A stretch of DNA of 64,000 bases from Verrucomicrobiia bacterium (GCA_035651635.1 DASRFK010000085.1:34728-98727); one strand, 5' to 3'. Shown: positions 5,717-40,892, numbered from the stretch's first letter. Numbers and translations: made by a program. The notes: generated by a model not told the origin, from the letters alone.

Positions 5717-5734
5717 GTCCTCTCAGAAGCTCAA

Positions 5735-13549: not shown

Positions 13550-13593
13550 CTGGACCAAAGGCTAGTCGAATTCGCGGCCCAGGAGGGTAAAAT
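13550..13593 (+). promoter_or_regulatory. palindrome-promoter module, copy d (degenerate right half)
   Basis: CTGGACCAAAGGCTAG (13550..13565), CGAATT (13567..13572), 15-nt spacer, TAAAAT (13588..13593). ATG at 13650. Confidence 0.5.
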
Positions 13594-14823: not shown

Positions 14824-14926
14824 CTCCGGAGAGACTACCCACGCTATCACGAGGCGGTCCACTGGTCCGCACTTCGGATCCAGTGCGAGTAAACCCCACC
14901 CGGTTCGTTCAGCGTGGTTGCACCGC

Positions 14927-17633: not shown

Positions 17634-17679
17634 CACGACCAAGGTCCAGTAGCGTCTTGGCGCTCGCGGAGGGTAGAAT
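17634..17679 (+). promoter_or_regulatory. palindrome-promoter module, copy e (upstream of HPF-like gene)
   Basis: CACGACCAAGGTCCAG (17634..17649), -35 position AGCGTC, 17-nt spacer, TAGAAT (17674..17679). ATG at 17802. Confidence 0.5.
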
Positions 17680-22194: not shown

Positions 22195-24660
22195 TCATCC
22201 GCCGCTCTTCTCATCCGCCACGCTACCAGCGCTCTTTGCCTCAAGCGCCGCCGCCAACACCTGGTCGACCGTTTCGCTGAGCACAAACGCCAGCTTCTCT
22301 TTCACCTCGGCCGGCACATCCGGAAGATCCTTCTCGTTCAGCTTGGGGATGATCACAGTTTTTACTCCAGCCCGCTCCGCCGCGAGGGTTTTCTCCTTAA
22401 GGCCGCCGATGGGCAACACCAGGCCGCGCAGAGTGACCTCGCCGGTCATGGCGACCTCGGAGCGCACCGGTGTGTTGCTGAAGAGCGAAGCTATGGCGGT
22501 GAACATCGCGACACCAGCGGAAGGTCCGTCTTTAGGCACCGCGCCGGCCGGAACATGAATGTGAAGATCGGTGTCTTTGAAGACAGCCGGGTCGATGTTC
22601 AACTCACGCGCGCGGCTTTTGACAAGGCTGAGGGCGGCCTGCGCGCTCTCTTTCATCACGTCGCCGATTTGACCCGTCAGAAGTATCCCGCCTTTGCCAG
22701 GGTAGCGCAGGGCTTCGATATGAAGGATTTCTCCGCCGGCCGGCGTCCAGGCCAACCCGGTAACGACTCCCGGTCTGCTCGTTTGAAGCTTGGTTTCACG
22801 GATGTACTTCGGCGGACCGAGAATGTTCTGCACGAGGTCCGGGCTGATGTGGATGTGGGTGGTCTCGCCTTTGGCAAAACGCGCGGCGATGGCCCGGCAA
22901 ACTGCGCCGATCCGGCGTTCGAGTTCGCGCACGCCCGCTTCGTGGGTGTAATCGCTGATGATTTTGGCCAAGGCGTCCGGTTCGAATTGACATTGCTCCG
23001 GAGTAAGCCCGTGCTCCTGGAGTTGGCGCACGACGAGATACCGCCGGGCGATTTCGAGTTTTTCCCGATACGTGTAGCCGCTGATCTCAATCACTTCCAG
23101 GCGGTCCAGCAAAGCCGGGGGCACGGGGTCCATCGAATTCGCGGTCGCGATAAAAATGATTTGAGACAGATCAAACGGAACATCCAGGTAATGGTCGACA
23201 AAGCCGTGATTCTGGCGCGGGTCGAGCACTTCAAGAAGGGCGCTGGCCGGGTCACCGCGGAAGTCGGCCCCCAGCTTGTCGATTTCGTCGAGCATCATCA
23301 CGGGATTGCGCGTGCCGGCCCGACGGAGTTCCTGAATGATCCGCCCCGGCATCGAGCCAATGTACGTGCGGCGGTGGCCCCGTATTTCTCCTTCGTCACG
23401 GACCCCACCCAGGCTTAAACGGACAAATTTTCGTCCAAGCGCGTCGGCAATCGACTGGCCGAGGCTGGTTTTGCCTACACCCGGAGGGCCGAGGAAGCAA
23501 AGGATGGGGCCGTGGCCGGTCGGATTGAGTTTGCGCACCGCTAGATATTCGATGAGCCGCCGTTTGACTTTCTCCAGGTCAAAATGGTCGCGGTCGAGGA
23601 TTTGCCGGGCGCGCTCGAGGTCGAGATTGTCCTCGGTGAGTTTGCTCCAAGGCAATTCAGCGATCGTCTCAACGTAACTGATGATAACGGAGAATTCGGG
23701 GCTGGCCGGATGCAGATGAGCCAGGCGGCGCAACTCGCGCTCGGCTTGCTCCATGACTTGTTTGGGTGGCAGAGCTGCCTTGAGCCGTTCGCGGAGTTCG
23801 GCGACCTGCTGTTGAGCGCCGTCTTCGCCCTCCCCGAGTTCCCTCTGGATGGCTTTGAGTTGCTCGCGCAGAAAGGCGCGACGCTCGGCGTCGGTGAACT
23901 TGGCCGCCACATCCTTTTGGATTTTCTGCTGGAGTTGTGCAATTTCGAGCTGGGCGGAAACGCGCACCAGGATTTCCCGGACTCGCTTGACAACGTCGAG
24001 CTCTCCGAGCAGGTCCAGCTTCTGTTGTGTGTCGAGGGTCAGGCTGCTGGCGAGGAAATCGGAAAGCCGGCCGGTATCTTCGAGGTTGAGCAGGAGGGCG
24101 CGGGCCTGTTCCGAAGCCTCCGGCGTCAAATCGATGAGTTTTAGAGCAGATTCGCGCAGTTGCTGCACGGTGGCTTCGAATTGCTTGTCATTGTTTGGCG
24201 GCGGGATGGAATGGAGCACCTCGACTTCAGCGCGAATAAACGGATGGGTGTTCAGGACATTGCGGATGGCGATGCGCTCCAGGACGTTGATGACGATGAT
24301 GATCTCGTCTTGGGAATGACGAATGAGCTTGAGCACGGAAGCTGCCACGCCCACCCGGTGCAGGTCGTGGGGGTCGGGATTGTCGAGCGCGGGGTTCTTT
24401 TGCGTGAAGGCCCCGATGATTTTGTTTTGCGGCAGAGATTCTTCAATCAATTTGCGAGAAGCCGCCCGGCCAATGGTCAAAGGCAAGACGGTGCCGGGAA
24501 AAAGAACGGTATCCCTTATCGGCAAAATGGGCAGCGTGTCGGGAATGGCGGGTACGCTGTCGCCGAGCGAGTGACCTTCGGGGGTAGCGATTTTCTCCGG
24601 TTGAGTCCGCGCCGGCTCGGCGCTGTTGGGCCTGGCAGAAATAGTCGAACCGGCACTCAT
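22195..24660 (-). CDS. lon: ATP-dependent Lon protease
   Basis: 821 aa. LON N-domain [14 protein letters not shown], Walker [10 protein letters not shown], Walker B MMLDEIDK, protease Ser context [11 protein letters not shown]. Confidence 0.95.
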
Positions 24661-24724
24661 AGCTTGAAGAAAGGGCTAATGGCGGACTGAGAACGCGGGT
24701 CAAGTTTCATAAAAAATGGGTTGG

Positions 24725-25141
24725 TCATGAGTGCTCCTGTAAGGGCAAATGAATCCAAAGCAAACCGTCGCGCTGCTCGGCCCTGACTCGCTTGGGATCC
24801 ACTTCTTCGGGCAAATCAACCACACGCCCGAAGGCTCCATAGTTGATTTCCATCGCCATTACCTTTATGGCCTGGTACGGGTCGTCGCAGGGAGGCTCGG
24901 GTGGCGGACGCGTGCCCGAAATGAGCAATCGATAGGGCTCGGTCCGCACAGCGAGGGTGTGCCTTTCCACGCCTGCCAGGTCCACGCAGATAACAAAGCA
25001 ATCCAGGCAGCGGTAGGCATTGATCGCCGGCCGCCAATGGTCTGGAGCGCCGAAACTACTGAAATGGACCCGCGTCAACTGGAAGGCGATCTCGCCTAAC
25101 TCACGTTCCAGGCGTTCGAGGTGACGGAAAGGGTCGTTCAT
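24725..25141 (-). CDS. Hsp20-family small heat-shock protein (divergent)
   Basis: 138 aa. WRPAINAYRCLDCFVICVDLAGVERHTLAVRTEPYRLLISGTR...YGAFGRVVDLPEEVDPKRVRAEQRDGLLWIHLP. Confidence 0.75.
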   Translation of the reverse strand: MNDPFRHLERLERELGEIAFQLTRVHFSSFGAPDHWRPAINAYRCLDCFVICVDLAGVERHTLAVRTEPYRLLISGTRPPPEPPCDDPYQAIKVMAMEINYGAFGRVVDLPEEVDPKRVRAEQRDGLLWIHLPLQEHS

Positions 25142-25157
25142 ATTTTTGTTTTGCCGG

Positions 25158-25484
25158 TTACTGACGAAGCCAGCGCGCCTCGGCCTGCAGACGCTCCACC
25201 TCGTTCATCAGGCTCAGGATCATTCTCACGCCCTGCAGGTTAATGTCGCAGGTATGGTGGAGGTACTCGATGCGGCGCAGCGTTCGGATACCCTCTTCGT
25301 TAAAATAAAAACCGTGGTTGGCCGGATCGACGACCGGGGACACCAAACGGTATTTGCAAAACACGGCAATCCGGCGACGCGGAACGTGAGCCAGACGCTC
25401 TGCCGCTTCAATCGTGTAAACCGCATCCGGGTCCGGTTCGAAAACCTGGATCGCTCCGTCAGGATTCTCTTGTGTTCGAGTCAT
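25158..25484 (-). CDS. MerR-superfamily HTH protein, CbpM/HspR-like chaperone modulator
   Basis: 108 aa. YTIEAAERLAHVPRRRIAVFCKYRLVSP......FYFNEEGIRTLRRIEYL.....INLQGVRMILSL. It lies in a cbpA-containing operon. Confidence 0.6.
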   Translation of the reverse strand: MTRTQENPDGAIQVFEPDPDAVYTIEAAERLAHVPRRRIAVFCKYRLVSPVVDPANHGFYFNEEGIRTLRRIEYLHHTCDINLQGVRMILSLMNEVERLQAEARWLRQ

Positions 25485-25504
25485 GGTCTTCTCCTCGCTT
25501 TAGA

Positions 25505-25975
25505 TTATCTGTTGGTTTCCTCGATGAATTGGCGCATGGCTTGAGCGGGCATCGCTCCCGACCGGCGCGCGACCTCGACTCCGCCTCGGAACAAGACCAT
25601 GGTTGGAATGCCAGAGATGCGGAAGCGCCGCGCGAGATCGGGCAACACTTCCGTATTAACTTTGGCGACGATCCATCGGCCGAGGCCGGCGACCTTTTCC
25701 AGTTCCGGCGCTACCATCTTGCAGGGCCCGCACCATTCGGCCCAGAAGTCGACGAGCACCGGCAGCGCCGAACGACTCGTCAGGGCTTCAAAGTGGGCGG
25801 CGCTTTTTACGTCAATCGGTTGATGTGGCGGACTGAGCTCGGTTTGGCAATTACTGCAGCGGAATGTTGCCCCTAGCTTTTCGTAGCTCATCCGGTTGCG
25901 TTTGCCGCATTTAGGGCATTCCAGGACGAGTCCCCGATCGTCCAGTTCGATACTGGTTTCGATAGTCGCATTCAT
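25505..25975 (-). CDS. trxC: thioredoxin with N-terminal zinc-finger (Trx2/TrxC type)
   Basis: Start moved to ATG 25975 (GGAGGA Shine-Dalgarno). CPKCGKRNR...CSNCQTEL followed by DFWAEWCGPCKMVAPE. Confidence 0.8.
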   Translation of the reverse strand: MNATIETSIELDDRGLVLECPKCGKRNRMSYEKLGATFRCSNCQTELSPPHQPIDVKSAAHFEALTSRSALPVLVDFWAEWCGPCKMVAPELEKVAGLGRWIVAKVNTEVLPDLARRFRISGIPTMVLFRGGVEVARRSGAMPAQAMRQFIEETNR

Positions 25976-26053
25976 ATTATCCTCCATTCTAAGATACGGC
26001 GTAAACGGCCGCGCACAACCGTCGCGCAATATTGCGGCTTATGAGACAGCGCC

Positions 26054-27046
26054 TCACGTGGCCTGTCGCGGGTTAAAGCGCGAGATCTTGCTCAACCTCT
26101 CCCACTCCTCTCGTTCTTCGTCGGTGATTTGCTTGGGTACTTGGATTTTGACGACCACATAAAGGTCTCCACGTTCGCGACTCGGGCCTCTGGGCAGACC
26201 TCGTCGACGGACGCGAAACTGTTGTCCGCTGCTCGTTCCCGGCGGGATTCGCAGATTAACCCGCCCGTCGAGTGCCGGCACGGTCACCGTTGTGCCGAGG
26301 ACGGCTTCCCAGGGCGCCACCTCCAGGTCATAGTAAAGGTCCTCGCCGTGCACGCGAAAATCCGGATGCGCCGCGTAACGCACATGAAGAAAGAGGTCGC
26401 CGGCTCCTGCTCCACCCGCACCTTCACCACCTTTCCCGGGCACGCGGATGGTTTGGCCGTCGCGCACCCCGACGGGGATGCGTACTTTGAAAGTGTAAGT
26501 CTCGGTTTTTCCGGTTTGGGGATTCGTGCGTTGAAGCGAAATGCTGCGCACCGAACCATGCATCACTTCATCCAGAGTGACCAGGATGTCCCCTTCGATA
26601 TCCTGCCCGCGCGCCGCGCCGCGAGCCTGGGTAAATTCGTCCCGGTCGAAGCCGTTGCCGCCGAAATCGAAACCGCCACGCCCGCGCCGTCCGAACAGTT
26701 GCTCGAAGAACTCGCTGAATCCTGTGCCGCCGAACCGAAATTCGTAGGCTTGCTCGCCGTTGCCGGCGTGTCGGGTTTGGCCCTGCCAGTCGGGCGGGGG
26801 TCTAAACCCCTCGCCTTGCTTCCAGTTCGCGCCGTATTGATCGTATTTCTTGCGCTTCTCCGGATCGCTTAAAACTTCGTAAGCCTCGTTGATTTCCTTG
26901 AATTTCTCCTCGGCAGCTTTTTTGTCCTTGGCCACATCAGGATGGTACTGCCGGGCCAGCCTGCGGAAGGCCTTCTTAATGTCTTCATCGCTCGCGTTCC
27001 GCGGCAAGCCCAGGGTGGCGTAGTAATCTTTGAATTCAACCGGCAT
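26054..27046 (-). CDS. cbpA: DnaJ-class co-chaperone without Zn-finger (CbpA-like)
   Basis: J domain [34 protein letters not shown] region, two C-terminal beta domains, no CxxCxGxG repeats. Overlaps the grpE stop by 11 nt. Confidence 0.85.
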
Positions 27047-27557
27047 GGCTCAGATCGTTGACAACGACTTTAGCCGGGCGAAAAACCTCCCGACCACGAC
27101 GATAGCCGCGCTCGAAAACTTCCAGCACGCTATGGTCGGGTCGAGACGGATCGTGCGCGGCCCGCAACGCTTCGTGGCGATGCGGGTCAAAAGGCTGACC
27201 AAGGTCCTCCACAGGCTCGATGCCGTGACGGCGCAGCAGTTGCCGCAATTGCTGGAGGGTCATTTGAACGCCCTGACGAAGGTGCTCAGGCAGGCCGGCG
27301 GTGGCGAGGGCTCGCTCCAGGTTATCGATGACGGGCAGCAGGTCGCGAATGAATCCTTCCTTTTGGGCGGCCGCCCGTCGGTCAACCTCCTGGGCAGTGC
27401 GTTTACGGAAATTATCGAAATCTGCTGCCAGGCGCAGGTGACGGTCTTGGAGTTCAGCCAGTTCCTTTGCCTCCGCAGGCAGATCCTCCTGTGCTGTCGC
27501 GCGGCCGTTGGCAGAGCCGTCGCCATCGGCGGGTGTATCGTCTCGTGGTGCATTCAT
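27036..27557 (-). CDS. grpE: nucleotide exchange factor GrpE
   Basis: 173 aa. [62 protein letters not shown]. The start overlaps the upstream stop (ATGA). Confidence 0.9.
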
Positions 27558-28612
27558 ACCCGGGCACCCATTGCGGTTGAATCTTCAAGCAAAGCGTGAC
27601 GGACGCGCTGTCGCAGCGCGGAGATTGTTTCCTTGACCCGGGCGAGCGGTTGGCCGGTGGCGTGAGCGATTTCCTCCGGCTCAAGCCCCTCGACGTAGTA
27701 TAGCTCAAAGACTTCGCGTTCCGCGCGTGGCCAGTGCTTGATATCCTGTTGGAGTTGTTCGAGCGCCTCCTTTTCCGCCAGGATTTCATCCGGCGGCAGG
27801 GCTTCGGAATTGGGCACAATGTCCTCAGTGCGGATGACTTGCGGCTCCATTTTCTTTTCCACAAACTCCTCAAGGGGTTGCAGGTTTTGTTCGCCGAGTT
27901 CCGGCAACTTCACAGGTTTTTCAGTGGGAACTTCGGTCACCTCCTTCTCCTTGACGAGCTCACGGCGGCGTTTGAGTTCTTCATGAATAAGGTGATAAAA
28001 CCAAACCAGCCAGCCCATATCGTTCGGGCGTGTGGCATAGGTGGCGATCGCGCGCCGTGCCACCTCATCCACAATGGCGCGCGCGTCCAGCGCACCTGCG
28101 GGAATATCGCCGGCCAGTTCGTCATGGCGGATGTGGCGGCGCGCGTGCCGTAACAACTCCCGGTAATGATACTGTAACAGCTCACGGATGACGTCCTCGC
28201 GGTTTTGGGGCCCGGTGCCCGCGGGCTGAGGCTGCTGCGCAAAACCTGCGCTTTTGAGCTGGCGCCGCAACTCTTCCCGGCGGGCCTTGCGCTTCCAAAG
28301 GCGCTCGCCCCGCGCCGTGGATTTAAACTTCTCAAGTTCCCGCAGCAGGCTCTTAACGGCTTCGTCGAAAGCCGTGATGAGCCCTTCTCCAGACTGAGCG
28401 GTGTGCAAAATGGCCGAAGGCACTCGCAAGGTCAGCTTGACATTGTGCGGGGGCGTTCCCGACCCGCGCTCGAGCACAATCTGGAGGTGAACGGCGTCGG
28501 GGGGAAAATGCTTGAGATGCCTCTCGAGTTTGGAAATTTTCTGGCGGAGCTTTTTCTCGAGCGATTCGTCTTTTTCAACGTTCTTGGTAACCAGATTCCA
28601 GCTAAAAGTCAT
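27554..28612 (-). CDS. fusion protein: N-terminal HPF/RaiA-like (S30AE) domain + C-terminal sigma70-family (ECF-like, clear region 4) domain
   Basis: Start moved to ATG 28612 (AGGAG Shine-Dalgarno). N-terminal MTFSWNLVTKNVEKDESLEKKLRQKISKLERHLKHFPPDAVHLQIVLER....HNVKLTLRVPSAILHTAQSGEGLITAFDEAVKSLLRELEKFKS follows the HPF pattern. C-terminal WPRAEREVFELYYVEGLEPEEIAHATGQPLARVKETISALRQRVRHAL follows the sigma70 region 4.2 pattern. A weaker region-2-like stretch is AIVDEVARRAI....P.DMGWLVWFYHLIHEELKRR. Confidence 0.7.
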   Translation of the reverse strand: MTFSWNLVTKNVEKDESLEKKLRQKISKLERHLKHFPPDAVHLQIVLERGSGTPPHNVKLTLRVPSAILHTAQSGEGLITAFDEAVKSLLRELEKFKSTARGERLWKRKARREELRRQLKSAGFAQQPQPAGTGPQNREDVIRELLQYHYRELLRHARRHIRHDELAGDIPAGALDARAIVDEVARRAIATYATRPNDMGWLVWFYHLIHEELKRRRELVKEKEVTEVPTEKPVKLPELGEQNLQPLEEFVEKKMEPQVIRTEDIVPNSEALPPDEILAEKEALEQLQQDIKHWPRAEREVFELYYVEGLEPEEIAHATGQPLARVKETISALRQRVRHALLEDSTAMGARV

Positions 28613-28680
28613 GAGCGTCTCCTGTTTAAGATAGTTATGTGTTCGCAAAACCAATGGCTGTCACGGTGATGAAGCGAAGC

Positions 28681-30303
28681 TCATTCGATGGTCCTCCACT
28701 GATGTCCGTTGCGCGCGAGCAACTCGTCCGCCTGCCTGGGTCCCCAGGACCCGGGCGAATAATTGGGAAAATCGCGCGGGGGCAGAGCCTGCCACACATC
28801 CAGTACCGGGGTGACGACGGCCCATCCGGCCTCCACCATGTCCGCGCGCTGGAACAGCGTCGCATCGCCGATCATACAATCGTAGATGAGCCGCTCATAG
28901 CCGGTGCTGGGGATGGTCCCGAAATAATCGGCGTACTGGAAATCCATCTCGACCGCGCCCAGCCGCATGATCGGCCCCGGAACTTTTGCCCCAAAGCAAA
29001 GCGACATCCCTTCGTCCGGATGAATGTGAACGATGAGTTGGTTGCTTTGCAGGCAGGCGACGGGCGTCCCTCGAAACAATTGAAACGGAGCCCGTTTGAA
29101 GTGGATGGCGATCTCCGTAACGCGCTTGGCGAGGCGCTTGCCGGTGCGCAAATAAAATGGCACGTCCGCCCAACGCCAGTTGTCAATCACCAGCTTGAGG
29201 GCGACAAAGGTTTCGGTGTTTGAATCGGACCCGACGTTGGGTTCGTCGCGATAACCGGGCACGGGCTTCCCGTCAAGCTGTCCTTTGGCGTATTGGCCGC
29301 GGACAGCCAGAGTTAGGACTTCTTCCGGCTTTGGCCGTTGCAGCGAGTGGAGCAGCTTGGCTTGTTCGTCGCGCACCGCGTTGGGGTCGAAGGAAACAGG
29401 CGGCTCCATGCCCATCAAAGAGATGAGTTGAAAAAGATGGTTCGGCACCATGTCGCGCAACGCTCCTGCCGTGTCGTAATAACCACCGCGCGAACCGACG
29501 CCGTCACGCCCGGCCGCGGTGATCTGCACCTGGTCGATGTAGCGACGGTTCCAAATCGGCTCGAATAGGCCATTGGCAAAACGGAAAATGATGATGTTCT
29601 GCACGGTCTCCTTGCCCAGGTAATGATCGATTCGATGAATCTGCCGCTCGTCAATGACTTGCCTAATCTGCGCGTTGAGCGCCCGCGCCGATTGCAGGTC
29701 GCGTCCAAAGGGCTTTTCGATGACGACCCGGCGCCACGACTCCCGTGATTCCTTCATCAAGCCCGCCGCTCCCAGCTGTTCGATGATCTTCCCGAAAAAT
29801 TGCGGCGGGACGGCCAGGTAGAATAAAGCGTTGCCTTGTGTGTCATACCGTTTTTCCGACTGGGCAATCTGCTCCTTGAGGCGTTCATAAGCGGAGGGAT
29901 CCTCAGAATCGCCGCGCACGCAATACAGGCGCCCGCGAATCCATTTCCACACGTCCGAAGACACCGTGCTGGCGGCAAGCTCTTTGACCCCCTCGGTCAA
30001 TTCGTTCCGAAATTGCTCGGTGGTGAACTCCTTGCGCGCGAATCCGATGATCGCGAAATGGTCTGTCAACAATTTCGCGGACGCCAGGTTGCACAGTGCC
30101 GGGATCAGTTTGCGCCTGGTCAGGTCACCCGTTGCTCCGAAGATTATCATCACGCATGGATCGGCAGTGCGAGCCGGGCGCTCGTCCCAAAACTCTGCTC
30201 GCCGATGGGTGTTCCACCCCGGAACCTGAGGACAAACCCTGTCGTCAGGTTCGCGCCGCCGTGCTGACGTTTGGCCGGGTTTGTTTGCGGTAGGGGTGTT
30301 CAT
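28681..30303 (-). CDS. zwf: glucose-6-phosphate 1-dehydrogenase
   Basis: [23 protein letters not shown], active-site region and the C-terminal domain are all present. The N-terminal ~50 aa may be an over-extension. Confidence 0.9.
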
Positions 30304-30329
30304 GGGCAGCCTCGGGTTCCCGCCACTGA

Positions 30330-32957
30330 TCAGGACTCTTTCTTTCGTTTGAGCGGCGCGGCCTCAAAGACAAGTGCGCCCTTTTTGAAGTCAACCGTCA
30401 CGTGGCTGGCTTCGCTGATTTCGCCGCTGAGGATCTTTCGCGCCAGTGCCGTCTCGATTTGACGCTGAAGGAAGCGTTTCAGCGGGCGCGCTCCATAAAC
30501 GGGGTCGTAGCCCTCCCGCGCTACATACTCCTTCGCCGCCTCGCTTAGTTCCAACTCGATCTGCCGATCGGCCAAACGTTGACGAAGCAACTTGAGCTGC
30601 AGGTCCACAATCTTTTTGATTTCCGCCAGAGTCAAAGGCTTGAAAAGGACGATATCGTCCACGCGGTTCAGAAATTCCGGTCGGAAATGGGCGCGCAGTT
30701 CCTCCAGCACTTTCTTGCGCACGTCTTCGGCGATTTGGCCCTGTTCGTTTGCATTCTCGATCAGCAACGGGCTGCCGATGTTGGACGTCATGATGAGGAT
30801 CGTGTTCTTAAAATCCACGGTGCGGCCCTGGTTGTCGGTGAGCCGGCCATCGTCGAGGATTTGCAGAAGCACGTTGAACACGTCATGATGTGCTTTCTCG
30901 ATTTCATCAAACAATACCACGGTGTAAGGCCGGCGGCGGACCGCTTCGGTGAGTTGCCCGCCTTCCTCGTAGCCGACGTATCCGGGTGGTGCGCCAATCA
31001 ACCGGGCTACGGCGTGTTTCTCCATGTATTCGCTCATATCGATGCGAATCATGTTATCTTCGCTGTCGAACAACGATTCGGCCAGGGCGCGGGCCAGCTC
31101 GGTTTTTCCCACCCCGGTCGGGCCGAGGAAAATAAACGAGCCGATGGGCCGCTTTGGATCTTTGAGGCCGGAGCGGGCGCGAATCACGGCATCGGCCACC
31201 GTCTGCACCGCTTCGTCCTGGCCGATCACGCGCTCATGAAGAATCTGGTCGAGCCGCAACAGTTTTTCTTTCTCGCCTTCGAGCAGGCGCGAGACAGGAA
31301 TCCCGGTCCAGCGCGCTACCACCTCTGCGACTTCGTCGGGTGTGACTTCTTCCCGTAAGAGACGGCTGCCTGCCTTTCCCGCCATCTTGGCTTCGAGTTC
31401 CTTGAGCTGGGCTTCGAGTTGCGGGATTTTGCCGTACTGAAATTCGGCCACGCGCCGCAGGTCGCTCTGCCGCTGCGCCTTCTCCATCTCCGTGCGGGCA
31501 AGTTCGAGGGCTTCGCGAAGTTTTTGCACGTCCTCGAGGCCGCGTTTTTCCGACTCCCATTGGGCTTTGAGGGCGTCACGCTGGCTCTTGAGATTGGCAA
31601 ATTCCTTTTCCAGCGCGGCCAGGCGCTCCTTGCTGGCTCGGTCTTTTTCCTTGCGCAGAGCCTCACGCTCGATTTCCAGCTGGAGCAAGCGCCGTTCGAG
31701 CTGCTCCAATTCTTCCGGCATGGACTCCATTTCGGTGCGCAGCTTGGCCGCCGCTTCGTCAATGAGGTCGATGGCCTTGTCCGGCAGGAAGCGATCGGTA
31801 ATGTAACGATGGGAGAGTTGCGCGGCGGCGACCAGCGCCGCGTCCTGAATGCGCACGCCGTGGTGTAATTCGTAACGCTCCCGCAAGCCCCGCAGGATGG
31901 AGATCGTGTCCTCGACGCTCGGTTCGTTGACCAGGATCGGCTGGAAGCGCCGTTCCAGCGCGGCATCCTTCTCAATGTACTTGCGATACTCGTCGAGGGT
32001 GGTTGCGCCGATGCAATGCAGCTCGCCCCGCGCAAGCATCGGCTTGAGCATGTTGCCCGCGTCCATGGCTCCTTCCGCCTTGCCGGCCCCGACCATCGTG
32101 TGAATTTCGTCAATGAAGATAGTGATCTGTCCCTGAGCTTTGGAGATTTCCTGGAGGACGGCTTTGAGGCGCTCCTCGAATTCGCCGCGATACTTTGCGC
32201 CAGCAATGAGCGCGCTCAGGTCGAGCGCGATGAGCCGTTTGTCTTTAAGACTTTCGGGCACGTCTCCGATGACAATCCGGCGAGCCAAGCCTTCGACGAT
32301 CGCAGTTTTGCCTACGCCCGGTTCGCCGATCAGCACCGGATTGTTCTTAGTACGGCGGGACAAGACCTGGATGCAGCGCCGGATTTCCGCATCGCGACCG
32401 ATAACGGGATCGAGTTTGTTCTGCTGCGCAAGCTTGGTGAGGTCGCGCCCGTACTTCTGCAGGGCCTCGTAGGTGGCTTCAGGATTCGCGCTGGTCACGC
32501 GCTGATTGCCGCGTACTTCGATCAGTCCCTGAAGGAAGTCGTCCCGGCGAACATCGAGTTCTTTGAAGATCCGGCCAATGCCTGTCGTGGCGGGCTCGTC
32601 AAACATCGCCAGGACCAGGTGTTCCACTGACACATATTCGTCCTTGAGCTTCTTCGCTTCGTCCTGCGCCTTGACGAGCAGCTTGTTCAGTCGTTGCGTG
32701 ACGTAGAGACCCTGTCCGGTGGTGCTGTCAGCCGAAACGCGTGGAATGCGGTTAATTTCCTCTTCCAGTTTGTGCTTGAGCAAATCCGGCGAGACCTTGG
32801 CCTTCTCGAACAAAGTTGGGATGAGCCCACCCTCCTGTTCGAGCAAGGCGAGCATCAAGTGCTCAACATCGACGGCCTGATGTTGATTGCGCGTGGCAAC
32901 GTTCTGGGCCTCGGCAAGCGCACTCTGGGATTTCTCCGTGAACTTGCTTAGGTCCAT
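30330..32957 (-). CDS. clpB: ClpB disaggregase (AAA+ chaperone)
   Basis: Start moved to ATG 32957 ([14 protein letters not shown]...). Two Walker A motifs ([18 protein letters not shown]), a long coiled-coil M-domain, and no ClpP-binding IGF loop noticed. Confidence 0.95.
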
Positions 32958-32969
32958 AGGCGTATTATT

Positions 32970-33007
32970 CTCGCGTCGCGCCACCTCGAGCTGCGGCGCG
33001 ACGCGAG
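32970..33007 (-). other. perfect 13-bp stem hairpin in the dnaK-clpB spacer
   Basis: CTCGCGTCGCGCC (32970..32982) / GGCGCGACGCGAG (32995..33007) with a 12-nt loop containing CTCGAG. No U-tract follows on the transcribed (minus) strand. Confidence 0.6.
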
Positions 33008-33036
33008 CCGATTGTAGTTTCCCTCAAGTGCGAAGG

Positions 33037-34956
33037 TCAGCGGCGGCTGCTGTCTTCCACGACCTCGGCATCCACTACGTCATCCTCCTGGCGCTCCGGG
33101 CGGGCCTGGCCGCTATCCCTTGTGCCGGGCGGCGGCTTTTGTTGAGAGGCGGCTTTGTACAACGCGGCCGAGACGGATTGCCAGACTTCATTGAGCCGGG
33201 CACTGGCGGATTTCATCGCCGCGGCATCCTCACGTTTGATCGCCTCCTTGGCCTCGGTGATGGCCTCCTCGATTTTGCGGCGGTCGGCTTCCGAGATCTT
33301 GCCCGCGTTGTCGCGCAGCATTTTCTCTGACCGATACACGGCGCTGTCGGCTTCGTTGCGCGCCTCGATTTCCTCGCGTTTCTGTTTGTCCTCCTCCGCG
33401 TGTATTTCCGCGTCTCGCTGCATTTTATCGATATCCTGTTTCGAGAGCCCGCTGCTGGCGGTGATCGTAATCTTCTGTTCTTTGCCCGTACCCAGGTCCT
33501 TAGCGCTTACATGCAGGATGCCGTTGGCATCGATATCGAAAGCCACTTCGATTTGAGGCACGCCCCGAGGGGCGGGCGGGATGTCGGTCAATTGGAATCG
33601 GCCGATGGTTTTGTTGTCTTTGGCCAACGGGCGTTCGCCCTGTAACACATGGACCTCAACACCGGGTTGGTTGTCCGAAGCCGTGCTGAACACCTCCGAC
33701 TTTCGGGTTGGAATAGTAGTGTTGCGGTCAATCAGTTTCGTCGTAACACCCCCCAAGGTCTCGATACCAAGCGAAAGCGGAGTGACATCGAGCAGGACAA
33801 CGTCCTTCACATCGCCCTTAAGGACACCGGCCTGAATGGCCGCGCCGACGGCGACTACCTCATCCGGGTTTACCCCCTGGTGCGGCGGTTTGTTGATCAG
33901 CGAGCGGGCGATCTCCACGATTCGCGGCATCCGGGTCATGCCCCCGACCATCACCAGTTCGTCAATGTCGTCGGTCGTTACACCGGCATCCTTTAAACAA
34001 GCCTTCACCGGTGGGATTGTCCGCTCGGAAAGGTCTTCACATAATTGTTCCATCTTCGCCCGTGTCAACTTGAGCTGGATATGTTTCGGGCCGCTGGCGT
34101 CCGCCGTGATGAAGGGGAGATTGATTTCATATTCTGTCACATTCGAGAGTGCGATCTTGGCTTTTTCGGCTTCTTCCTTGATGCGCTGTAACGCGTCCGG
34201 TTGCTTGCGCAAATCCATGCCGTTGGATTTCTTGAACTCGTCCAAAATCCAATCCATGATCCGCGCATCCCAGTCGTCCCCGCCAAGATGGGTATCGCCA
34301 TTGGTCGCCTTGACTTCAAAAACCCCTTCGCCGATGTCGAGCACTGAAATGTCGAACGTGCCGCCGCCGAGGTCGAACACGGCTACCTGTTCATTTTTCT
34401 TCTTGTCCAACCCGTAAGCCAGGGAAGCGGCCGTGGGCTCGTTGACGATGCGTAATACCTCCAGGCCGGCGATGCGGCCGGCGTCTTTGGTGGCCTGGCG
34501 CTGCGAATCGTTAAAGTACGCAGGAACCGTAATGACAGCCTGGGTGATTTTGTCTCCCAGCCGCACTTCGGCATCGGCTTTCAGTTTCGAGAGAATCATC
34601 GCGGAAATCTCCGGCGGGCTGAACTGTTTCGGTCGGCCGCCGACTTCGACCTCTACTGCCGCGTCGCCGTTTTGGGCGCGGACGACTTTGTAGGGAACGC
34701 GCTTGATTTCTTCCTGCACCTCATCGTATTTGCGGCCCATGAAGCGTTTAATGGAATAGATGGTATTCCGTGAGTTTGTGATGGCCTGCCGTTTGGCCGC
34801 ATCGCCGACAATTCGCTCGCCGGATTTGGTGAACGCAACCACGGAAGGGGTGGTCCGTTTGCCTTCCGAGTTTTCCAGCACAGAGGGTTCGCCGCCTTCC
34901 ATGACGGCCATGCATGAATTAGTGGTGCCGAGATCGATACCGATGACTTTTGGCAT
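33037..34956 (-). CDS. dnaK: Hsp70 chaperone DnaK
   Basis: [37 protein letters not shown]-terminal lid and acidic tail. Confidence 0.97.
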
Positions 34957-34995
34957 AAAATACGTGTGTTAATGGTTGAGGTTGTTTCAGGAGGT

Positions 34996-35556
34996 TCACC
35001 GAACTGAAGGTGACTGCGTAAGCGCCGCGAGGAGCGGATCGAGACCGCGCGCGCCATCGTATCGCTCGCCATTGATGAAAAAGCTCGGCGTGCCGTTGAC
35101 ACCTCCCCGAATCCCACTCTTAAAATCTTCGCGAATGCGCGCCGCATGGGCGCCGGCCCGGACTTCGCCGACCAGGCGCCGAGCATCGAGGCTCAGAGCT
35201 GTGGCATAACGGGCGAGATCCTCGATGTCGAGGGCATCCTGGTTTTCGAAGAGCGCGTCGTGCATTTCCCAAAAACTACCTTGGGCGCCGGCGGCCTCGG
35301 CCGCCTCGGCGGCATCCTCGGCGTGCGGGTGCATGTTCACCAGAGGGAAATTGCGAAATGCGAAACACAGGTTATCGCCCAGACGCTGCTGGATCGCCTT
35401 AACGACGGGATAAACCTCCCCGCAAAAGGGGCACTCGTAGTCGCCGTACTCGACCAGCGCAATGGACGCCTCAATCGGTCCCTGGATATGGTCGCGTCCG
35501 GCGACCGGCAGGGTGAGTTTCGATACTGGAATCGTTCTGGGAGAGGACGTGCTCAT
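34996..35556 (-). CDS. DsbA-family thiol:disulfide oxidoreductase (thioredoxin fold), no signal peptide
   Basis: LVEYGDYECPFCGEVYP (CPFC active site). Typical C-terminal GTPSFFINGERY. The start overlaps the peroxiredoxin stop (ATGA). Confidence 0.8.
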   Translation of the reverse strand: MSTSSPRTIPVSKLTLPVAGRDHIQGPIEASIALVEYGDYECPFCGEVYPVVKAIQQRLGDNLCFAFRNFPLVNMHPHAEDAAEAAEAAGAQGSFWEMHDALFENQDALDIEDLARYATALSLDARRLVGEVRAGAHAARIREDFKSGIRGGVNGTPSFFINGERYDGARGLDPLLAALTQSPSVR

Positions 35557-36080
35557 TTGGCCACCTCTTTGGGCTGCAGAGTTTCCAACGCCGAAAGAAT
35601 TCCCGCTGCCCCGGGATTTACCCCGACAGGCGAAACATAGCTCCAGTGCACTTTTCCGTCCGGATCGAGGACGAACAACGCCCGTTCGCTCACACCATCG
35701 CCGTTGCGATACACCCCGTAGCTTTGCGCCACCGCGCCTTTAGGCTCAAAATCCGCCAGCAGAGGGAAGTGCAGTTTTCGATCCCTGCTGAACGCCGCGT
35801 GACACCATGCGCCGTCTACTGAAAGACCGAGCAATTCCGCCCCGAACTGTTGAAACTCGGGCAGGATCTCGTTATACAGCGTCATCTGGTCACCACAAAC
35901 GGGACTCCAATCGGCCGGATAGAAGGCGAGGATCACAGGGCATCCGCGAAAGTCCCTAAGGCTGACGAATTGGTCGGGGGTGCTTCGCAGTGTGAAATCC
36001 GGAGCGTCTGTTCCCGGCGGCAAGGCCGCGTTCTTGGACCCTTTCGGGTACATCTGTTTGTACTTGGTTTCTTGGTTCAT
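35553..36080 (-). CDS. peroxiredoxin (AhpC/TSA family)
   Basis: APDFTLRS...VSLRDFRGCPVILAFYPADWSPVCGDQM. Confidence 0.85.
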   Translation of the reverse strand: MNQETKYKQMYPKGSKNAALPPGTDAPDFTLRSTPDQFVSLRDFRGCPVILAFYPADWSPVCGDQMTLYNEILPEFQQFGAELLGLSVDGAWCHAAFSRDRKLHFPLLADFEPKGAVAQSYGVYRNGDGVSERALFVLDPDGKVHWSYVSPVGVNPGAAGILSALETLQPKEVAK

Positions 36081-36117
36081 AATTTTTGTCTCCTGTTTTG
36101 TTAAAGTAGATGTTCCG

Positions 36118-36981
36118 TTAAAGTAGAGTTGCCGCCCGGGGCTCGCTTCGGCCGGTCCGGCGTGGAACCGGGAGGTACTCCACGGAAGGCTGTCGCCGCG
36201 TCGGTTGCGGGTAGAGCTGCATCAAATTCAACATGTCTTCTGGAATGTCGCTGCGCACTCGCAACCCCAGCTCGTGAGCTCGATCGTAGGTTATCGGATA
36301 ATCGTGAGTCCAAGTGCCGCTGGTCAACAGTTTGGCTAATTCTGCGCCTTTTTCGCTGGGATACCGGTCGGCCAATAACAGGCGCACTTCGCCATCCATT
36401 TGGGCCACGGCCTTTTCCGCCTGGTCGGCCAGAATCAAGGTCTTATCGTCCACCTCGGCGATCGGCTTCTCGCGGACGGCTCGGAGAATCGAAGCGGCGG
36501 GATGTTCGCCCAGTTGCGGATCGACGGGGCCTAGCACCGCATGTTCGGACATGACGACTTCGCTGGCGGCCAGGGCTATCAACGTGCCACCGGACATCGC
36601 GTAGTGCGGCACGAAAACCGTAACCTTGCCTTTGTGTTTGACCACCGCTCGCGCGATTTGGGTTGCAGCCAGGACCAACCCGCCCGGCGTATGCAGCACA
36701 AGATCCAGCGGAATCTCAGGATCGGTCAAATGGATGGCGCGGAGAACTTCCTCGCTGTCGTCCACATCAATGTACCGAAACAAAGGGAAGCCCAGCACAC
36801 TCATTGTTTCCTGACGATGAACCAGAAGCACGACACGCGATTTCCGTTCTCTCTCAATTTGGGCGATGAGTCTTCGTCGCGAGGCCTCGAGCATTCGTTG
36901 TTTCATGACCGGCTGAAGCGCCGAGAGCATGAAAAACACCCAAAAGATCTGCATTGGATCGATCACGGCCGAGTTAGTCAT
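36118..36981 (-). CDS. membrane-anchored SDH-family (ClpP-fold) serine protease
   Basis: N-terminal TM segment. LDLVLHTPGGLVLAATQIARAV, HYAMSGGTLIALAASEVVM, typical of the 'serine dehydrogenase proteinase' / periplasmic ClpP-class family. Confidence 0.7.
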   Translation of the reverse strand: MTNSAVIDPMQIFWVFFMLSALQPVMKQRMLEASRRRLIAQIERERKSRVVLLVHRQETMSVLGFPLFRYIDVDDSEEVLRAIHLTDPEIPLDLVLHTPGGLVLAATQIARAVVKHKGKVTVFVPHYAMSGGTLIALAASEVVMSEHAVLGPVDPQLGEHPAASILRAVREKPIAEVDDKTLILADQAEKAVAQMDGEVRLLLADRYPSEKGAELAKLLTSGTWTHDYPITYDRAHELGLRVRSDIPEDMLNLMQLYPQPTRRQPSVEYLPVPRRTGRSEPRAATLL

Positions 36982-37229
36982 ATCTCACCCAAGCAACGCT
37001 GTGCATCTCCCTTGCCAGAGGCTCATGTATCGGGGAGGAATTCGTCCATGTAGCTAAGTTCAAAGCGGTTAATCCAGTGAATGATTGGCGCGGTGATGCT
37101 TGAGGCCCAGGCTCGTCAAGAAATGACGTCAGCATTTTGACAAAGAGTCAGTAATCCGTCAGCCGATCGCACCGTTCTGATGAGCGATAGCTGCCTTTGT
37201 CGCAAAAGAGTCATCCGAAGTGATGCGGC

Positions 37230-37738: not shown

Positions 37739-38392
37739 ATGCTCGAATCTGATCCTGAATCGGATCCAATTGTGATCATCATTGACGACGATGTATCGTT
37801 CCTTCGATCCACCGAGCGGTTGGTGCGTGCGGCGGGCTTTAAGACTCGAATGTTTGAAAGCGCAAAGGACTTTCTGGATGCCAAGCGTCCGGATGCCCCG
37901 GTTTGCGTGCTGCTCGACGTGCGCTTGCCCGGGATGAGCGGCCTCGATTTGCAGAAGCACCTGTCCCGCACTGGCGAGGAAGTCCCGATCATCTTCATCA
38001 CTGGGAAGGGTGACATTCCAATGTCGGTTCAGGCGATGAAGGGTGGCGCGGTCGAGTTTCTCACCAAACCGTTCCGGGAACCGGACCTCCTCGAGGCCAT
38101 CCAGCAAGCCCTTAGCCGTGACCGCGCAGCACGTGAAAACCGCGCGCGAGTCGGAGAGTTACGCCGAAACTATGAAACCCTCACTCCGCGAGAGCGCGAA
38201 GTTCTGGCGCTTCTGGTTGCCGGTTTCCTGAATAAACAAATCGCCGGACGACTGGGAACGGTCGAAAAAACAATCAAATTCCATCGCGCGCATGTTATGC
38301 GGAAGATGGAGGCTGGGTCTTTGGCTGAATTGGTCCACATGGCCGGATTCCTGGAGAGATCGGCACGGCGTCCGACCCCGCCGGTTCCATAA
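37739..38392 (+). CDS. orphan FixJ/NarL-type response regulator (REC + LuxR/GerE HTH)
   Basis: [106 protein letters not shown]. Paralog of the regulator at 1..623. No kinase gene is adjacent. Confidence 0.9.
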
Positions 38393-38421: not shown

Positions 38422-38466
38422 CTGGCCCAAGGTCCAGTAGATTCGTCATCCCATTCGAGCTATTTC
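38422..38466 (+). promoter_or_regulatory. palindrome-promoter module, copy f (upstream of sigma54 activator)
   Basis: CTGGCCCAAGGTCCAG (38422..38437), -35 position AGATTC, 16-nt spacer, TATTTC (38461..38466). The 16-mer is identical to copy b. Confidence 0.5.
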
Positions 38467-38632: not shown

Positions 38633-39793
38633 ATGACAACAATGATCTCGATGAATGACAAAGCCGCAGAGACACCCACCTCCTGGCCTGGTGCGTACGA
38701 GCCGGACCCCGGCACGCCTGGCGCGATGGATTATCCGCCCGTTGCGCTGCCTCCTCGATCGGGTCAGCAAGGCCCTTCCCGATCTAAGGAAAACCAGGAC
38801 TCCGACCAGCCGTCCAGACTCGACGAGCTTTCGCGACAGGCCGGCGAAGGGATTATCGGTCGAAGCCCGGCGCTCAAGGTCGCCCTCCGGCATGTGGCGA
38901 TTGTGGCTCCGACAAACGCGGCTGTTTTGATTCTCGGCGAGACCGGCACCGGAAAGGAACTCATCGCGCGGGCGATTCATCGGCTCAGTTCACGCCGGGA
39001 TTCTACGCTCACCAAACTTAACTGCGCAGCCATTCCTGCGGGCCTGCTGGAAAGCGAATTATTCGGCTATGAGCGAGGGGCGTTTACCGGGGCGGCCGGC
39101 CGGCGGATTGGGCGCTTCGAAATGGCGCATCAAGGCACGTTGTTCCTGGACGAAGTGGGCGATTTCCCGCCCGAACTTCAGCCGAAGCTGCTCCGCGCCC
39201 TTCAGGAAAAGGAGTTTGAGCGGTTGGGTGGGAACCAGACCTATCAGGTCAACGTGCGGGTCGTGGCTGCCACAAGCCGGGACTTGTCCCAAATGGTCGC
39301 CGAACGCCAATTTCGAAGCGATCTCTGCTATCGGCTCAGCGTCTTTCCGATCCGCATACCAGCCTTGCGTGAGCGGCCGGAGGACATTCCGCTGCTGGCG
39401 TGCTATTTCGTAAACCATTTCGCCCGGCAGATGAACAAGCGGATTGATACTATTCCCCAAGGCATCATGGACTCGCTGAAGCGTCATCATTGGCCGGGCA
39501 ATGTTCGCGAGCTGGAAAACTTCCTCGAGCGCTCGGTGATCATGTCGAACACTCGAAGCCTAACTTCTCTATCCGCTGAACTGGAACGGTCCGGCTGCAG
39601 TTCCAAGCCTGAAGTATCCCGGCCTGCCACACTCGAAGAATGCGAGCGCGATCATATTTTGCGGGCACTGCAGGAAACACGGTGGCTCGTGGGCGGCACT
39701 CACGGCGCCGCTGCGCGACTCGGCCTCAGGCGCACCACTTTGATCTGGAAAATGCAGAAGCTCGGGATTGCTCGCAATCGACACAAACTGTAA
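38633..39793 (+). CDS. sigma54-dependent transcriptional activator (AAA+ and Fis-type HTH) lacking a recognisable N-terminal sensor domain
   Basis: Walker A GETGTGKE, ESELFGYERGAFTGA (GAFTGA loop), Walker B LFLDEVGD, RVVAAT, C-terminal HTH AAARLGLRRTTLIWKMQKLGI. The first ~75 aa are Pro/Ser/Gln-rich and lack REC/GAF/PAS features. Confidence 0.9.
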   Translation: MTTMISMNDKAAETPTSWPGAYEPDPGTPGAMDYPPVALPPRSGQQGPSRSKENQDSDQPSRLDELSRQAGEGIIGRSPALKVALRHVAIVAPTNAAVLILGETGTGKELIARAIHRLSSRRDSTLTKLNCAAIPAGLLESELFGYERGAFTGAAGRRIGRFEMAHQGTLFLDEVGDFPPELQPKLLRALQEKEFERLGGNQTYQVNVRVVAATSRDLSQMVAERQFRSDLCYRLSVFPIRIPALRERPEDIPLLACYFVNHFARQMNKRIDTIPQGIMDSLKRHHWPGNVRELENFLERSVIMSNTRSLTSLSAELERSGCSSKPEVSRPATLEECERDHILRALQETRWLVGGTHGAAARLGLRRTTLIWKMQKLGIARNRHKL

Positions 39794-40474: not shown

Positions 40475-40595
40475 GAGCGCGTTTTAAAATTTGGTTTGGA
40501 GTCCCGCCTTTAGGCGGCCCGGCGCCAAAACCGTCTGAAGGCGGGACCCCAAACCCAGGTGCCCAGGCCCAAGCCGAGGTTTTAAAACACGCTCT
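40475..40595. repeat. dispersed palindromic (MITE-like) element, full copy with terminal inverted repeats
   Basis: TIRs GAGCGCGTTTTAAAA (40475..40489) / TTTTAAAACACGCTC (40580..40594). The internal GGAGTCCCGCCTTTAGGCGG...GAAGGCGGGACCCC hairpin and the CCCAGGTGCCCAGGCCCAAGCCGAGG segment are near-identical to 5616..5716. Confidence 0.8.
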
Positions 40596-40775
40596 AAGGC
40601 AGGGCGGCGAAGGTCGCTTCTTTGACGGCTATGATTTCCTCACGTCCGAGTATATCCCTTTCGTTTGCTCTCACGTTTAAGACGCCATTTGCGCAACCGG
40701 AGGTGCGGATTCGCGCAAAAATCGGGTCAGAGGCGACAAAGTGGCGACAAGCCTGCGAATAACTAGATTCACAAC

Positions 40776-40815: not shown

Positions 40816-40892
<77 letters not shown>

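Follow-up and report, generated by a model that had tools for sequence, protein, structure and literature searches.

A conserved gene family joining an HPF-like domain to an ECF-sigma-like domain, encoded among chaperone genes of a Verrucomicrobiia bacterium

The window analyzed here is a 64,000-nucleotide stretch of DNA from a soil-type Verrucomicrobiia bacterium (GCA_035651635.1, DASRFK010000085.1:34728-98727). On its minus strand, between zwf and grpE, lies a gene whose product joins a domain resembling the ribosome hibernation-promoting factor (HPF/RaiA) to a domain resembling sigma factors of the extracytoplasmic function (ECF) type. Both halves are real at the level of sequence and of predicted fold, and the fusion is a conserved gene with a large family. 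A preliminary description, made from the sequence alone, had proposed one uninterrupted reading frame with an HPF-like first 100 residues, a weaker region-2-like segment, an acidic linker and a sigma70 region 4.2 at the C-terminus, and all of these elements were confirmed. The coordinates are collected in Table 1. An alternative start, a TTG 14 codons upstream of the ATG, would give a protein of 366 residues. The ATG is preferred because the closest homologs begin at the equivalent methionine.

Table 1. Features of the fusion gene, its domains and the surrounding genes. Positions are those of the window. aa, amino acids; nt, nucleotides; ORF, open reading frame; pLDDT, predicted local distance difference test score.
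Feature	Position	Strand	Basis or remarks
HPF-like / ECF-sigma-like fusion gene	27554..28612	-	352 aa plus stop; ORF, Pfam, NCBIfam, AlphaFold2, Foldseek, full-length homologs
Shine-Dalgarno-like AGGAG	28619..28623	-	6 nt 5' of the fusion ATG; read from sequence
HPF/RaiA-like domain, aa 1-100	28313..28612	-	beta-alpha-beta-beta-beta-alpha; Pfam, Foldseek, profile matches
Basic helix, aa 101-120	28253..28312	-	helix 103-117 predicted, low pLDDT; W106, K107, R108, R112 conserved
Junction motif F124...G132-x-G134-P135-Q136	28205..28243	-	alignment; flexible in fusion and short-paralog models
Sigma region-2-like domain, aa 138-226, four helices	27935..28201	-	TIGR02937 alignment from residue 142, Foldseek
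Acidic disordered sigma2-sigma4 linker, aa 227-273	27794..27934	-	pLDDT <50 over 228-273
Sigma region 4 with 4.2 helix-turn-helix, aa 274-345	27578..27793	-	starts at conserved P274-D275
SDH-type ClpP-like protease	36118..36981	-	Pfam, sequence; Pfam families of locus L044 in matching order
DsbA-like and peroxiredoxin genes	about 34996..36080	-	Pfam, sequence; Pfam families of locus L044 in matching order
dnaK	33037..34956	-	Pfam
clpB	30330..32984	-	Pfam
zwf	28681..30303	-	Pfam; upstream of fusion
grpE	27036..27557	-	Pfam GrpE, E 1e-40; start overlaps fusion stop
cbpA/dnaJ-like co-chaperone	26054..27046	-	Pfam DnaJ (J domain) and DnaJ_C; no zinc finger
Thioredoxin	25505..26029	-	Pfam; downstream of fusion
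HspR/CbpM-like MerR	25158..25484	-	Pfam; NCBIfam HspR 35.9 bits, CbpM 29.4 bits, both far below cut-offs
hsp20	24725..25141	-	Pfam
lon	22195..24660	-	translation and homologs in related loci
Short HPF-like paralog, 134 aa	17802..18206	+	Pfam S30AE, E 2.7e-6; no sigma part
Palindrome-promoter copy	17634..17653	+	repeat family D2; ~150 nt upstream of short paralog

Residues 7-98 of the fusion match the Pfam family Ribosomal_S30AE (PF02482) with an E-value of 8.5e-11 (42.9 bits, cut-off 23.7), and a profile search of Protein Data Bank (PDB) sequences matches this domain to Listeria HPF at an E-value of 1e-9. The equivalog model of the family, TIGR00741 (yfiA/HPF), gives 38.4 bits, just below its cut-off of 40.9. 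Foldseek comparison of the predicted domain with the PDB returns HPF folds with template modeling (TM) scores of 0.8-0.89 and root mean square deviations of 1.5-2.2 Å (4hei, 6h4n, 8uu7, 8rd8_D). The best match is Vibrio cholerae HPF (4hei, TM 0.89, 1.5 Å), and Escherichia coli HPF (6h4n) reaches 0.86. The mean net charge of the domain across the family is +6. The helix that follows it adds a mean net charge of +6 and is confined to fused proteins. Residues F124, G132, G134, P135 and Q136 of the junction are invariant in the 33 aligned fusions.

The C-terminal half is matched almost from end to end by the NCBIfam sigma70-ECF model TIGR02937, in which residues 142-341 align with model positions 3-165 of 165 (51.0 bits, cut-off 42.9). 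Pfam Sigma70_r4_2 (PF08281) matches residues 295-335 with 26.7 bits against a cut-off of 25.7. Among the best 25 of 41 NCBIfam matches, two are HPF models and the rest are sigma factors (ECF, FliA/WhiG); none of the 25 is an RpoH model. Neither Pfam nor NCBIfam reports a region 3 in the fusion, whose sigma half has the two-domain fold of solved ECF sigma factors and also lacks region 1.1. Pfam finds no Response_reg receiver domain in it, and nothing in the C-terminal half apart from sigma models, thus no dimerization domain of the long-HPF type. The profile search of PDB sequences returns sigma chains for this half and is weak for region 2 (5uxx_A, 1h3l_A). The linker between regions 2 and 4 is about 47 residues long and has a net charge of -6 in the window protein and -8.4 as the family mean, with P246, L247 and P257 conserved within it. 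Region 4 has a mean net charge of -4.8.

An AlphaFold2 model of the fusion, based on the 33-sequence alignment, has a mean pLDDT of 72.9 and a predicted TM score (pTM) of 0.64. It consists of an HPF-type domain (residues 4-99), a four-helix domain (138-226), a disordered segment (228-273) and a second four-helix domain (274-351). Over about 200 columns, Foldseek aligns the sigma half with sigmaE, SigW, SigH, CnrH and an EcfG-type RpoE at a probability of 1.00 (6jbq_F, 5wuq, 6jcx_F, 4cxf_A, 5uxx). The predicted sigma half fits the compact forms bound to anti-sigma factors better, with TM scores of 0.60-0.65 (CnrH/CnrY 0.65, SigW/RsiW 0.60), than the forms bound in holoenzyme, for which the score is about 0.3. 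The region-2-like segment is recognized by TIGR02937 and by its fold but not by Pfam Sigma70_r2, so that its earlier description as weaker is accurate.

Homologs of the fusion are numerous. A word-index search recovered 263 relatives; nearly all of the best 120, drawn from NCBI, JGI, ENA and Logan, align with 95-100% of the length of the query and are 46-94% identical to it. When 1.84 billion cluster representatives (50% identity) were searched exhaustively with a profile, 137 clusters were obtained at E ≤1e-30, many of them 330-390 residues long and matched end to end. More than 100 clusters, mostly of Verrucomicrobiota, contain the full-length fusion with its junction. Pfam detects S30AE in all 33 members scanned and Sigma70_r4_2 in 31 of them. 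In a scan of one genome per GTDB species, 41 loci were found, mostly in Verrucomicrobiota. The carriers include Verrucomicrobiia/Pedosphaerales-like bacteria, two cultured Limisphaera isolates, Udaeobacter/Chthoniobacterales, Methylacidiphilales and Opitutia, together with a few metagenome-assembled genomes labeled as further phyla, mainly Binatia and Methylomirabilota. Sigma-only relatives (P0156 and P0159, for example) and more distant fusions (P0240) also occur. Two NCBI homologs are labeled "sigma-70 family RNA polymerase sigma factor", and several sources label homologs "ribosomal subunit interface protein" or "HPF/RaiA family". The suspicion that the ORF is two genes joined by a frameshift or assembly error, which the preliminary description had named as a possible refutation, is rejected with near certainty because the full-length fusion with its conserved junction recurs across many independent assemblies and sources, the Limisphaera isolates among them. 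Only the rarity of the architecture speaks for such an artifact.

The fusion belongs to a series of genes that runs SDH-type ClpP-like protease, peroxiredoxin, DsbA-like, dnaK, clpB, zwf, fusion, grpE, cbpA-like, thioredoxin, MerR-like, hsp20 and lon. The series occupies about 15 kb of one strand (22195-36981, minus) with gaps of 16-68 nt, or 16-64 nt for the genes from thioredoxin to lon, and its order is kept in the related locus L044. It is possibly one operon or a few very long ones. The last codon and stop of the fusion overlap the start of grpE by 4 nt (ATGA at 27557..27554), and the grpE stop and cbpA-like start overlap by 11 nt (27036..27046). Both overlaps had been read correctly in the preliminary description, and they suggest that the fusion, grpE and the cbpA-like gene may be co-translated. 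The NCBIfam DnaJ and CbpA models match the cbpA-like gene below their cut-offs. The run combines heat-shock genes (dnaK, clpB, grpE, cbpA, hsp20, lon) with redox genes (peroxiredoxin, DsbA-like, thioredoxin) and a gene for NADPH supply (zwf); zwf, thioredoxin and peroxiredoxin genes accompany the fusion in this clade. The MerR-like gene, which is paired with cbpA in many loci, may encode either a DNA-binding heat-shock repressor or a CbpA modulator.

The place of the fusion ahead of grpE had been likened to that usually held by hrcA. The likeness stands as a positional analogy only, as the fusion has no homology to HrcA. Among the 34 window ORFs scanned (most of those of at least 200 residues, smaller ones lying outside the scan), Pfam finds no HrcA, and no CIRCE element occurs in the window at up to 3 mismatches, in agreement with the earlier reading. 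The HAIR consensus is absent from the window or at chance level. A sigma54-like -24/-12 match, TGGCAA-N5-ATGCA, lies at 37002-37017 (minus), 20 nt ahead of the gene that opens the cluster. It was rejected as a promoter: such matches number 40 in the window, which is not above chance (expectation 35.7), and the ATG is too near. A sigma54 activator gene (38633..39793) is located near this match.

The gene neighborhood was compared in 39 loci whose fusion is full-length. In 24 of them a protein-quality-control gene is found no more than 5 kb away, on the same strand in 22 and immediately downstream in 14; the proportion is 20 of 27 where the locus extends at least 3 kb to either side. The genes counted are cbpA (12 loci), MerR-like (11), htrA (8), hsp20 (7), clpB (6), lon (5) and grpE (4), and the commonest sets are cbpA with the MerR-like gene, hsp20-lon, clpB, and htrA. 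The locus L044, whose fusion is 94% identical, has the gene order of the window and the same 4-nt overlap of fusion and grpE. In L045, at 47% protein identity, the order zwf-fusion-grpE-dnaJ-trx-merR and the 4-nt overlap are both kept. A Pedosphaerales contig (DSVZ01) has fusion-grpE-merR-dnaJ, and L046 has fusion-dnaJ-merR. A linkage to chaperone genes at large is borne out by these counts. The linkage to grpE is present in the window, L044, L045, L047, L048, L010 and L024, where grpE is directly 3' of the fusion, and is missing in most relatives. The neighbor counts and annotated contigs indicate that the tie is to the whole proteostasis gene set and that the coupling to grpE is lineage-limited. 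Among the 39 loci, no sigma or anti-sigma gene, and no gene for a NepR-like protein or a partner sigma, is found repeatedly in the vicinity of the fusion. This lack of a conserved anti-sigma neighbor agrees with the proposal of the HPF part as a built-in regulatory module.

The gene next upstream of the fusion belongs to baeRF family 12 (also matched by Pfam Host_attach) in L001, L003, L034, L037 and L046, and such a gene is found about 1.2 kb upstream of the fusion in the two Limisphaera genomes (L013, L018). Burroughs and Aravind reported that baeRF-1 families persistently share operons with HPF, and they proposed joint action on the ribosome (PMC6514570). The presence of baeRF-12 beside the fusion extends this published baeRF-HPF neighborhood to an HPF-sigma fusion (PMC6514570). 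Because of these neighbors in 7 related loci, the HPF-like half can be said to share a neighborhood typical of real hibernation factors, which gives independent support to the link with the ribosome that had been suggested from the sequence (PMC6514570). In L046, a Verrucomicrobiia genome, a separate canonical-looking S30AE (HPF) gene is found at 14855-15107, 7 kb from the fusion. The coexistence of the two argues that the fusion is not simply the hibernation factor of that organism.

Small proteins of the uncharacterized STAUR_1299 family (NF041086, 110 bits; about 120-127 residues) are encoded in L001, L003, L005, L011, L014, L033, L037 and L046. Their genes form operon-like units with the fusion, with cbpA-merR or with hsp20, and none is found in the window. 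The family has no match to any PDB sequence. Its members could be partners or regulators.

The window also contains the short HPF-only gene that the preliminary description had pointed out, together with the linker motif it shares with the fusion and the palindrome copy that precedes it. The shared segment reads F-x-x-Q-P-x-x-x-G-T-G-P-Q-N, and the tail of the short protein is ...RFSDQPMAEGTGPQN... The short family has 12 members of 134-167 residues, is conserved, and keeps the GxGPQ tail motif. What the short paralog lacks relative to the fusion is precisely the basic helix and whatever lies beyond the first turn of sigma region 2. This deletion pattern indicates that the GxGPQ motif belongs to the HPF module and the basic helix to the fused form. 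In an AlphaFold2 model of the short paralog, the residues of the fold mostly have a pLDDT above 90 and those of the tail about 50, with no sign in the model of the tail docking on the HPF fold. A flexible tail of this kind would suit a short linear motif for binding a partner in trans. In locus L042 (8001-8438), the short gene stands in the order prx-dsbA-[short HPF]-trx-merR-quinone oxidoreductase. Its neighbors there correspond to the genes on either side of the dnaK..cbpA block in the window and to the gene 3' of the window's short paralog. The short paralog may plausibly be a competitor of the fusion.

The palindrome CTGGACCAAGGTCCAG occurs in 7 plus-strand copies (3677-3696, 5735-5754, 5799-5818, 9693-9712, 13550-13569, 17634-17653 and 38422-38441). 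Each copy has a TAnnnT box about 20 nt downstream, followed by a plus-strand gene. The genes are two hsp20 genes and those for an M50-CBS protease with rhomboid, a PRC-barrel protein plus DUF4404, an unknown 220-residue protein, the short HPF-like protein and the sigma54 activator. The palindrome resembles the operator-promoter of another, separate regulon for stress or dormancy. As a target promoter of the fusion it was rejected: it precedes no minus-strand gene of the chaperone cluster, and only 1 match was found in 650 kb (43 related loci).

Taken together, we favor the reading that the fusion is a member of an undescribed, conserved family of ECF-type sigma factors, in which the HPF/RaiA-like domain replaces a separate anti-sigma factor and the input probably comes through the ribosome. 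We give this reading a probability of roughly 0.45. The C-terminal half would bind the RNA polymerase core and direct transcription of stress genes, most likely those of its own cluster. The N-terminal half, from its likeness to HPF in sequence and fold, would still recognize the small ribosomal subunit. The number of vacant ribosomes would then set how much sigma is free for the polymerase, and the ribosome would in effect stand in for an anti-sigma factor. Ribosome binding is favored as the input because of the near-equivalog HPF signature, the strongly basic domain and helix, and the baeRF-12 neighbor. Binding might either switch the sigma off or stabilize it. The fusion-specific basic helix, with the acidic sigma2-sigma4 linker, may keep the free protein closed; the charges of the linker and of region 4 and the compact predicted sigma half would also allow such an autoinhibited state. 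The short HPF-only paralog would be a competitor at that site. In its boldest form, which is possible but doubtful, the ribosome itself is the anti-sigma factor: the HPF domain would park the sigma in the decoding channel of vacant 30S/70S particles, ribosome occupancy would directly set transcription of the protein-quality-control regulon, and the HPF-only paralog and baeRF-12 would be competitors or helpers at this site.

Several observations weigh against this interpretation. Pfam Sigma70_r2 (PF04542) does not match the window protein even at E ≤1, although a sigma-only relative has a weak match (E 0.022), and region 2 diverges from the usual ECF consensus, with the Asn of "IArN" replaced by Leu and "AeDlvQe" by "ARxVVDE". 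In the 4.2 recognition helix, several basic positions are Ser, Thr or Gln in the family. The Pfam model PhyR_sigma-like (PF22233) matches region 4 in 13 of 33 members, the window protein not being one of them. Mean-field direct coupling analysis of 199 full-length members (effective number 140, so that the test is underpowered) gave scattered top pairs and no HPF-sigma interface. A chaperone neighbor is missing in about a third of the loci, and the window itself has no baeRF gene. The HspR/CbpM-like MerR of the cluster could be an alternative regulator of the chaperone genes. Finally, sigma activity and ribosome binding are both predictions from similarity of sequence and fold.

Promoter searches belong with these points. 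Upstream regions of fusion and chaperone genes (104) were compared with 505 control upstream regions by k-mer enrichment; in addition, close relatives were footprinted and the bipartite motifs of the window were enumerated. GAAAC is present in 33% of the fusion and chaperone regions and 19% of the controls, a weak signal at an uncorrected p of 0.002, and TGAAC is weakly enriched as well. Nothing convincing emerged as a -35/-10 motif shared by the regions upstream of the fusion and chaperone genes, and there was no common -10.

The protein could also be a true ECF-type sigma factor whose HPF-like domain works off the ribosome, holding sigma2/sigma4 in an autoinhibited state in cis until heat, the chaperones (DnaK/CbpA/GrpE) or another signal releases it. 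Sigma32 is bound by chaperones in the DnaK/DnaJ/GrpE feedback, and in the present cluster co-chaperone genes lie directly 3' of the fusion. In charge, the basic N-terminal module complements the acidic linker and region 4, and the pTM of 0.64, reached despite 75 disordered residues, suggests a defined relative placement of the domains. The closer fit of the sigma part to anti-sigma-bound than to holoenzyme-bound ECF factors points the same way, but AlphaFold2 often yields compact ECF models by default. Regulation of ECF sigma factors with fused extensions through conformational change is known (PMC8999054). Against these points stand an HPF signature nearly at the equivalog cut-off, which is unexpected for a pure protein-protein module; a baeRF-12 neighborhood that points to the ribosome (PMC6514570); the HPF-only paralogs, which retain the fold and the tail motif with no sigma to inhibit; and the failure of a test of little power to detect inter-domain co-variation. 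We consider purely cis-acting control unlikely. A proteolytic variant, in which the HPF-like part of a pro-sigma factor is cut off at or after the junction by Lon, HtrA or the SDH-type ClpP-like protease in the manner of BldN, is compatible with the favored ribosome-responsive reading and is itself a long shot. Its junction motif is invariant and flexible, and protease genes are frequent neighbors. The short paralogs stop 12-20 residues past the motif and the sigma-only relatives start immediately behind it, so that each half occurs in nature as a unit of its own. We know of no recognizable cleavage signal at the junction, no direct evidence underlies this variant, and the HPF-only paralogs keep the motif with nothing to release, so that it more likely serves the HPF module. 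Proteolysis is among the known ways in which extended ECF sigma factors are activated (PMC7826278, PMC8999054).

Two further explanations deny the C-terminal half a role at the polymerase. It could be a sigma-derived helical domain that has taken the place of the dimerization domain of a long HPF, to dimerize or anchor idle ribosomes, and the protein would then be a translation factor in a stress-induced cluster. Genes for HPF are typically stress-induced. The recognition helix is poorer in basic residues than usual, the baeRF-12 neighbor and the ribosomal labels of homologs agree with such a role, and the order of N-terminal HPF, flexible linker and C-terminal domain mirrors that of long HPF (PMC5620043). 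Passing the cut-off of the ECF model with region 2, linker and region 4, and the good conservation of region 4.2 in the family, are at odds with it, as are the sigma-only relatives that have no HPF part, the separate canonical-looking S30AE gene in at least one fusion genome, and the short paralog in the window. A translation factor therefore seems quite improbable to us. Alternatively, the protein could be a sigma mimic like PhyR that captures an anti-sigma factor instead of the polymerase, with the HPF-like domain controlling its exposure by partner switching. The PhyR_sigma-like model not only matches some members but outscores Sigma70_r4_2 in P0240 (46.8 against 31 bits), the nearest sequence match for region 2 is an EcfG-type sigma crystallized with NepR (5uxx), and both region 2 and the recognition helix show partial degeneration. 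Such cross-matches are expected, though, given the homology between the PhyR model and ECF region 4, and the window protein passes TIGR02937 and matches no PhyR model. With no receiver domain in the fusion and no recurring NepR-like, anti-sigma or partner sigma genes, mimicry appears very improbable.

Comparison with described systems places the fusion nearest to ECF sigma factors that have no anti-sigma factor and carry a fused regulatory extension, an established class covered by the classification paper and a later review (PMC7826278, PMC8999054). Like ECF41/SigJ (SnoaL-like), ECF42 (TPR), ECF238 (CorE), ECF121 (BldN) and ECF36 (SigC), it has a sigma2-sigma4 core with an extra domain and no adjacent cognate anti-sigma gene, and regulation is expected to act through the extension. 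Extensions in that class are mostly C-terminal, with a few N-terminal ones such as those of BldN and SigC. That of the fusion is N-terminal, comprises about 135 residues and has the fold of a ribosome hibernation factor, and its sigma2-sigma4 linker is unusually long and acidic. No HPF or ribosome-related domain is mentioned in the main text of either article (PMC7826278, PMC8999054). ECF classifiers may miss proteins of this type, because their region 2 escapes the Pfam model. A literature search covering HPF, sigma factors, ECF and Verrucomicrobia found no paper on an HPF-sigma fusion, as the preliminary description had supposed.

With HPF/RaiA (YfiA) the fusion shares the fold and family signature of its N-terminal domain and, in some genomes, the baeRF neighborhood. 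It differs in the WN motif in strand 1, the basic helix, the GxGPQ tail and a score below the TIGR00741 cut-off, and in adjoining chaperone genes and not rpoN, nor standing as a lone stress gene. Long HPF likewise has a flexible linker and a second domain, which in the fusion is sigma-like and not a dimerization domain. Sigma32 (RpoH) is a candidate functional analog: the fusion, too, is sigma-like and stands with chaperone and protease genes, and as co-chaperone genes share its transcription unit, a chaperone feedback loop would be plausible by analogy. Unlike sigma32, the fusion is ECF-like, has no region 3 and has no RpoH model among the listed matches, and its control of a regulon is predicted only. 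PhyR, the anti-anti-sigma factor of the EcfG/NepR system, also combines an ECF-derived sigma-like module with a signal-input domain, and some fusion members match its model; the fusion lacks the receiver domain and NepR/EcfG neighbors. As in HrcA/CIRCE and HspR/HAIR systems, a regulator would head the grpE-dnaJ unit (compare hrcA-grpE-dnaK-dnaJ), and an HspR/CbpM-like MerR gene is part of the cluster. With neither HrcA homology nor CIRCE or HAIR elements in the window, this likeness is one of position.

Some other elements of the window were noted. An ORF of 1271 residues (41718..45533, minus) contains at least 9 copies of a repeat with 126-nt periodicity (42 residues) at 42493-44120 (repeat families D1, D4), and its product is perhaps a beta-propeller-like repeat protein. 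Two copies of an element of about 100 nt (5609-5717 and 40488-40598), 86-97% identical, carry a perfect 25-nt hairpin, GGTTTGGAGTCCCGCCTTTAGGCGG and its complement; this may be a small mobile element or one resembling repetitive extragenic palindromic sequences. About 220 nt separate the second copy from the only tRNA gene of the window (40816-40889), which follows it. Inverted repeats of 36-41 nt at 48068-48103 and 48777-48870 share GTGTYGACTCCAACCATTATGTAAGCA (I3, I4, D5), and two of them form a hairpin with an 11-nt loop. A 247-nt inverted repeat with 74% complementarity joins 247-493 and 37881-38127. Its second arm falls within a gene for a LuxR-type response regulator (37739..38392), an indication of a paralogous regulator gene close to the left end of the window.

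Control of the heat-shock response is poorly known outside Proteobacteria and Firmicutes, and no heat-shock sigma factor of Verrucomicrobiota is described in the literature searched. The fusion offers a testable route from the state of translation to the transcription of the proteostasis machinery, and the Limisphaera isolates are cultured carriers in which experiments are feasible. Its divergent region 2 suggests that ECF surveys built on region-2 models may miss such proteins. If the sigma role is true, the HPF-like domain would be a new kind of input domain for the ECF sigma family, and if the ribosome does act as the anti-sigma factor, this would be a new regulatory principle.

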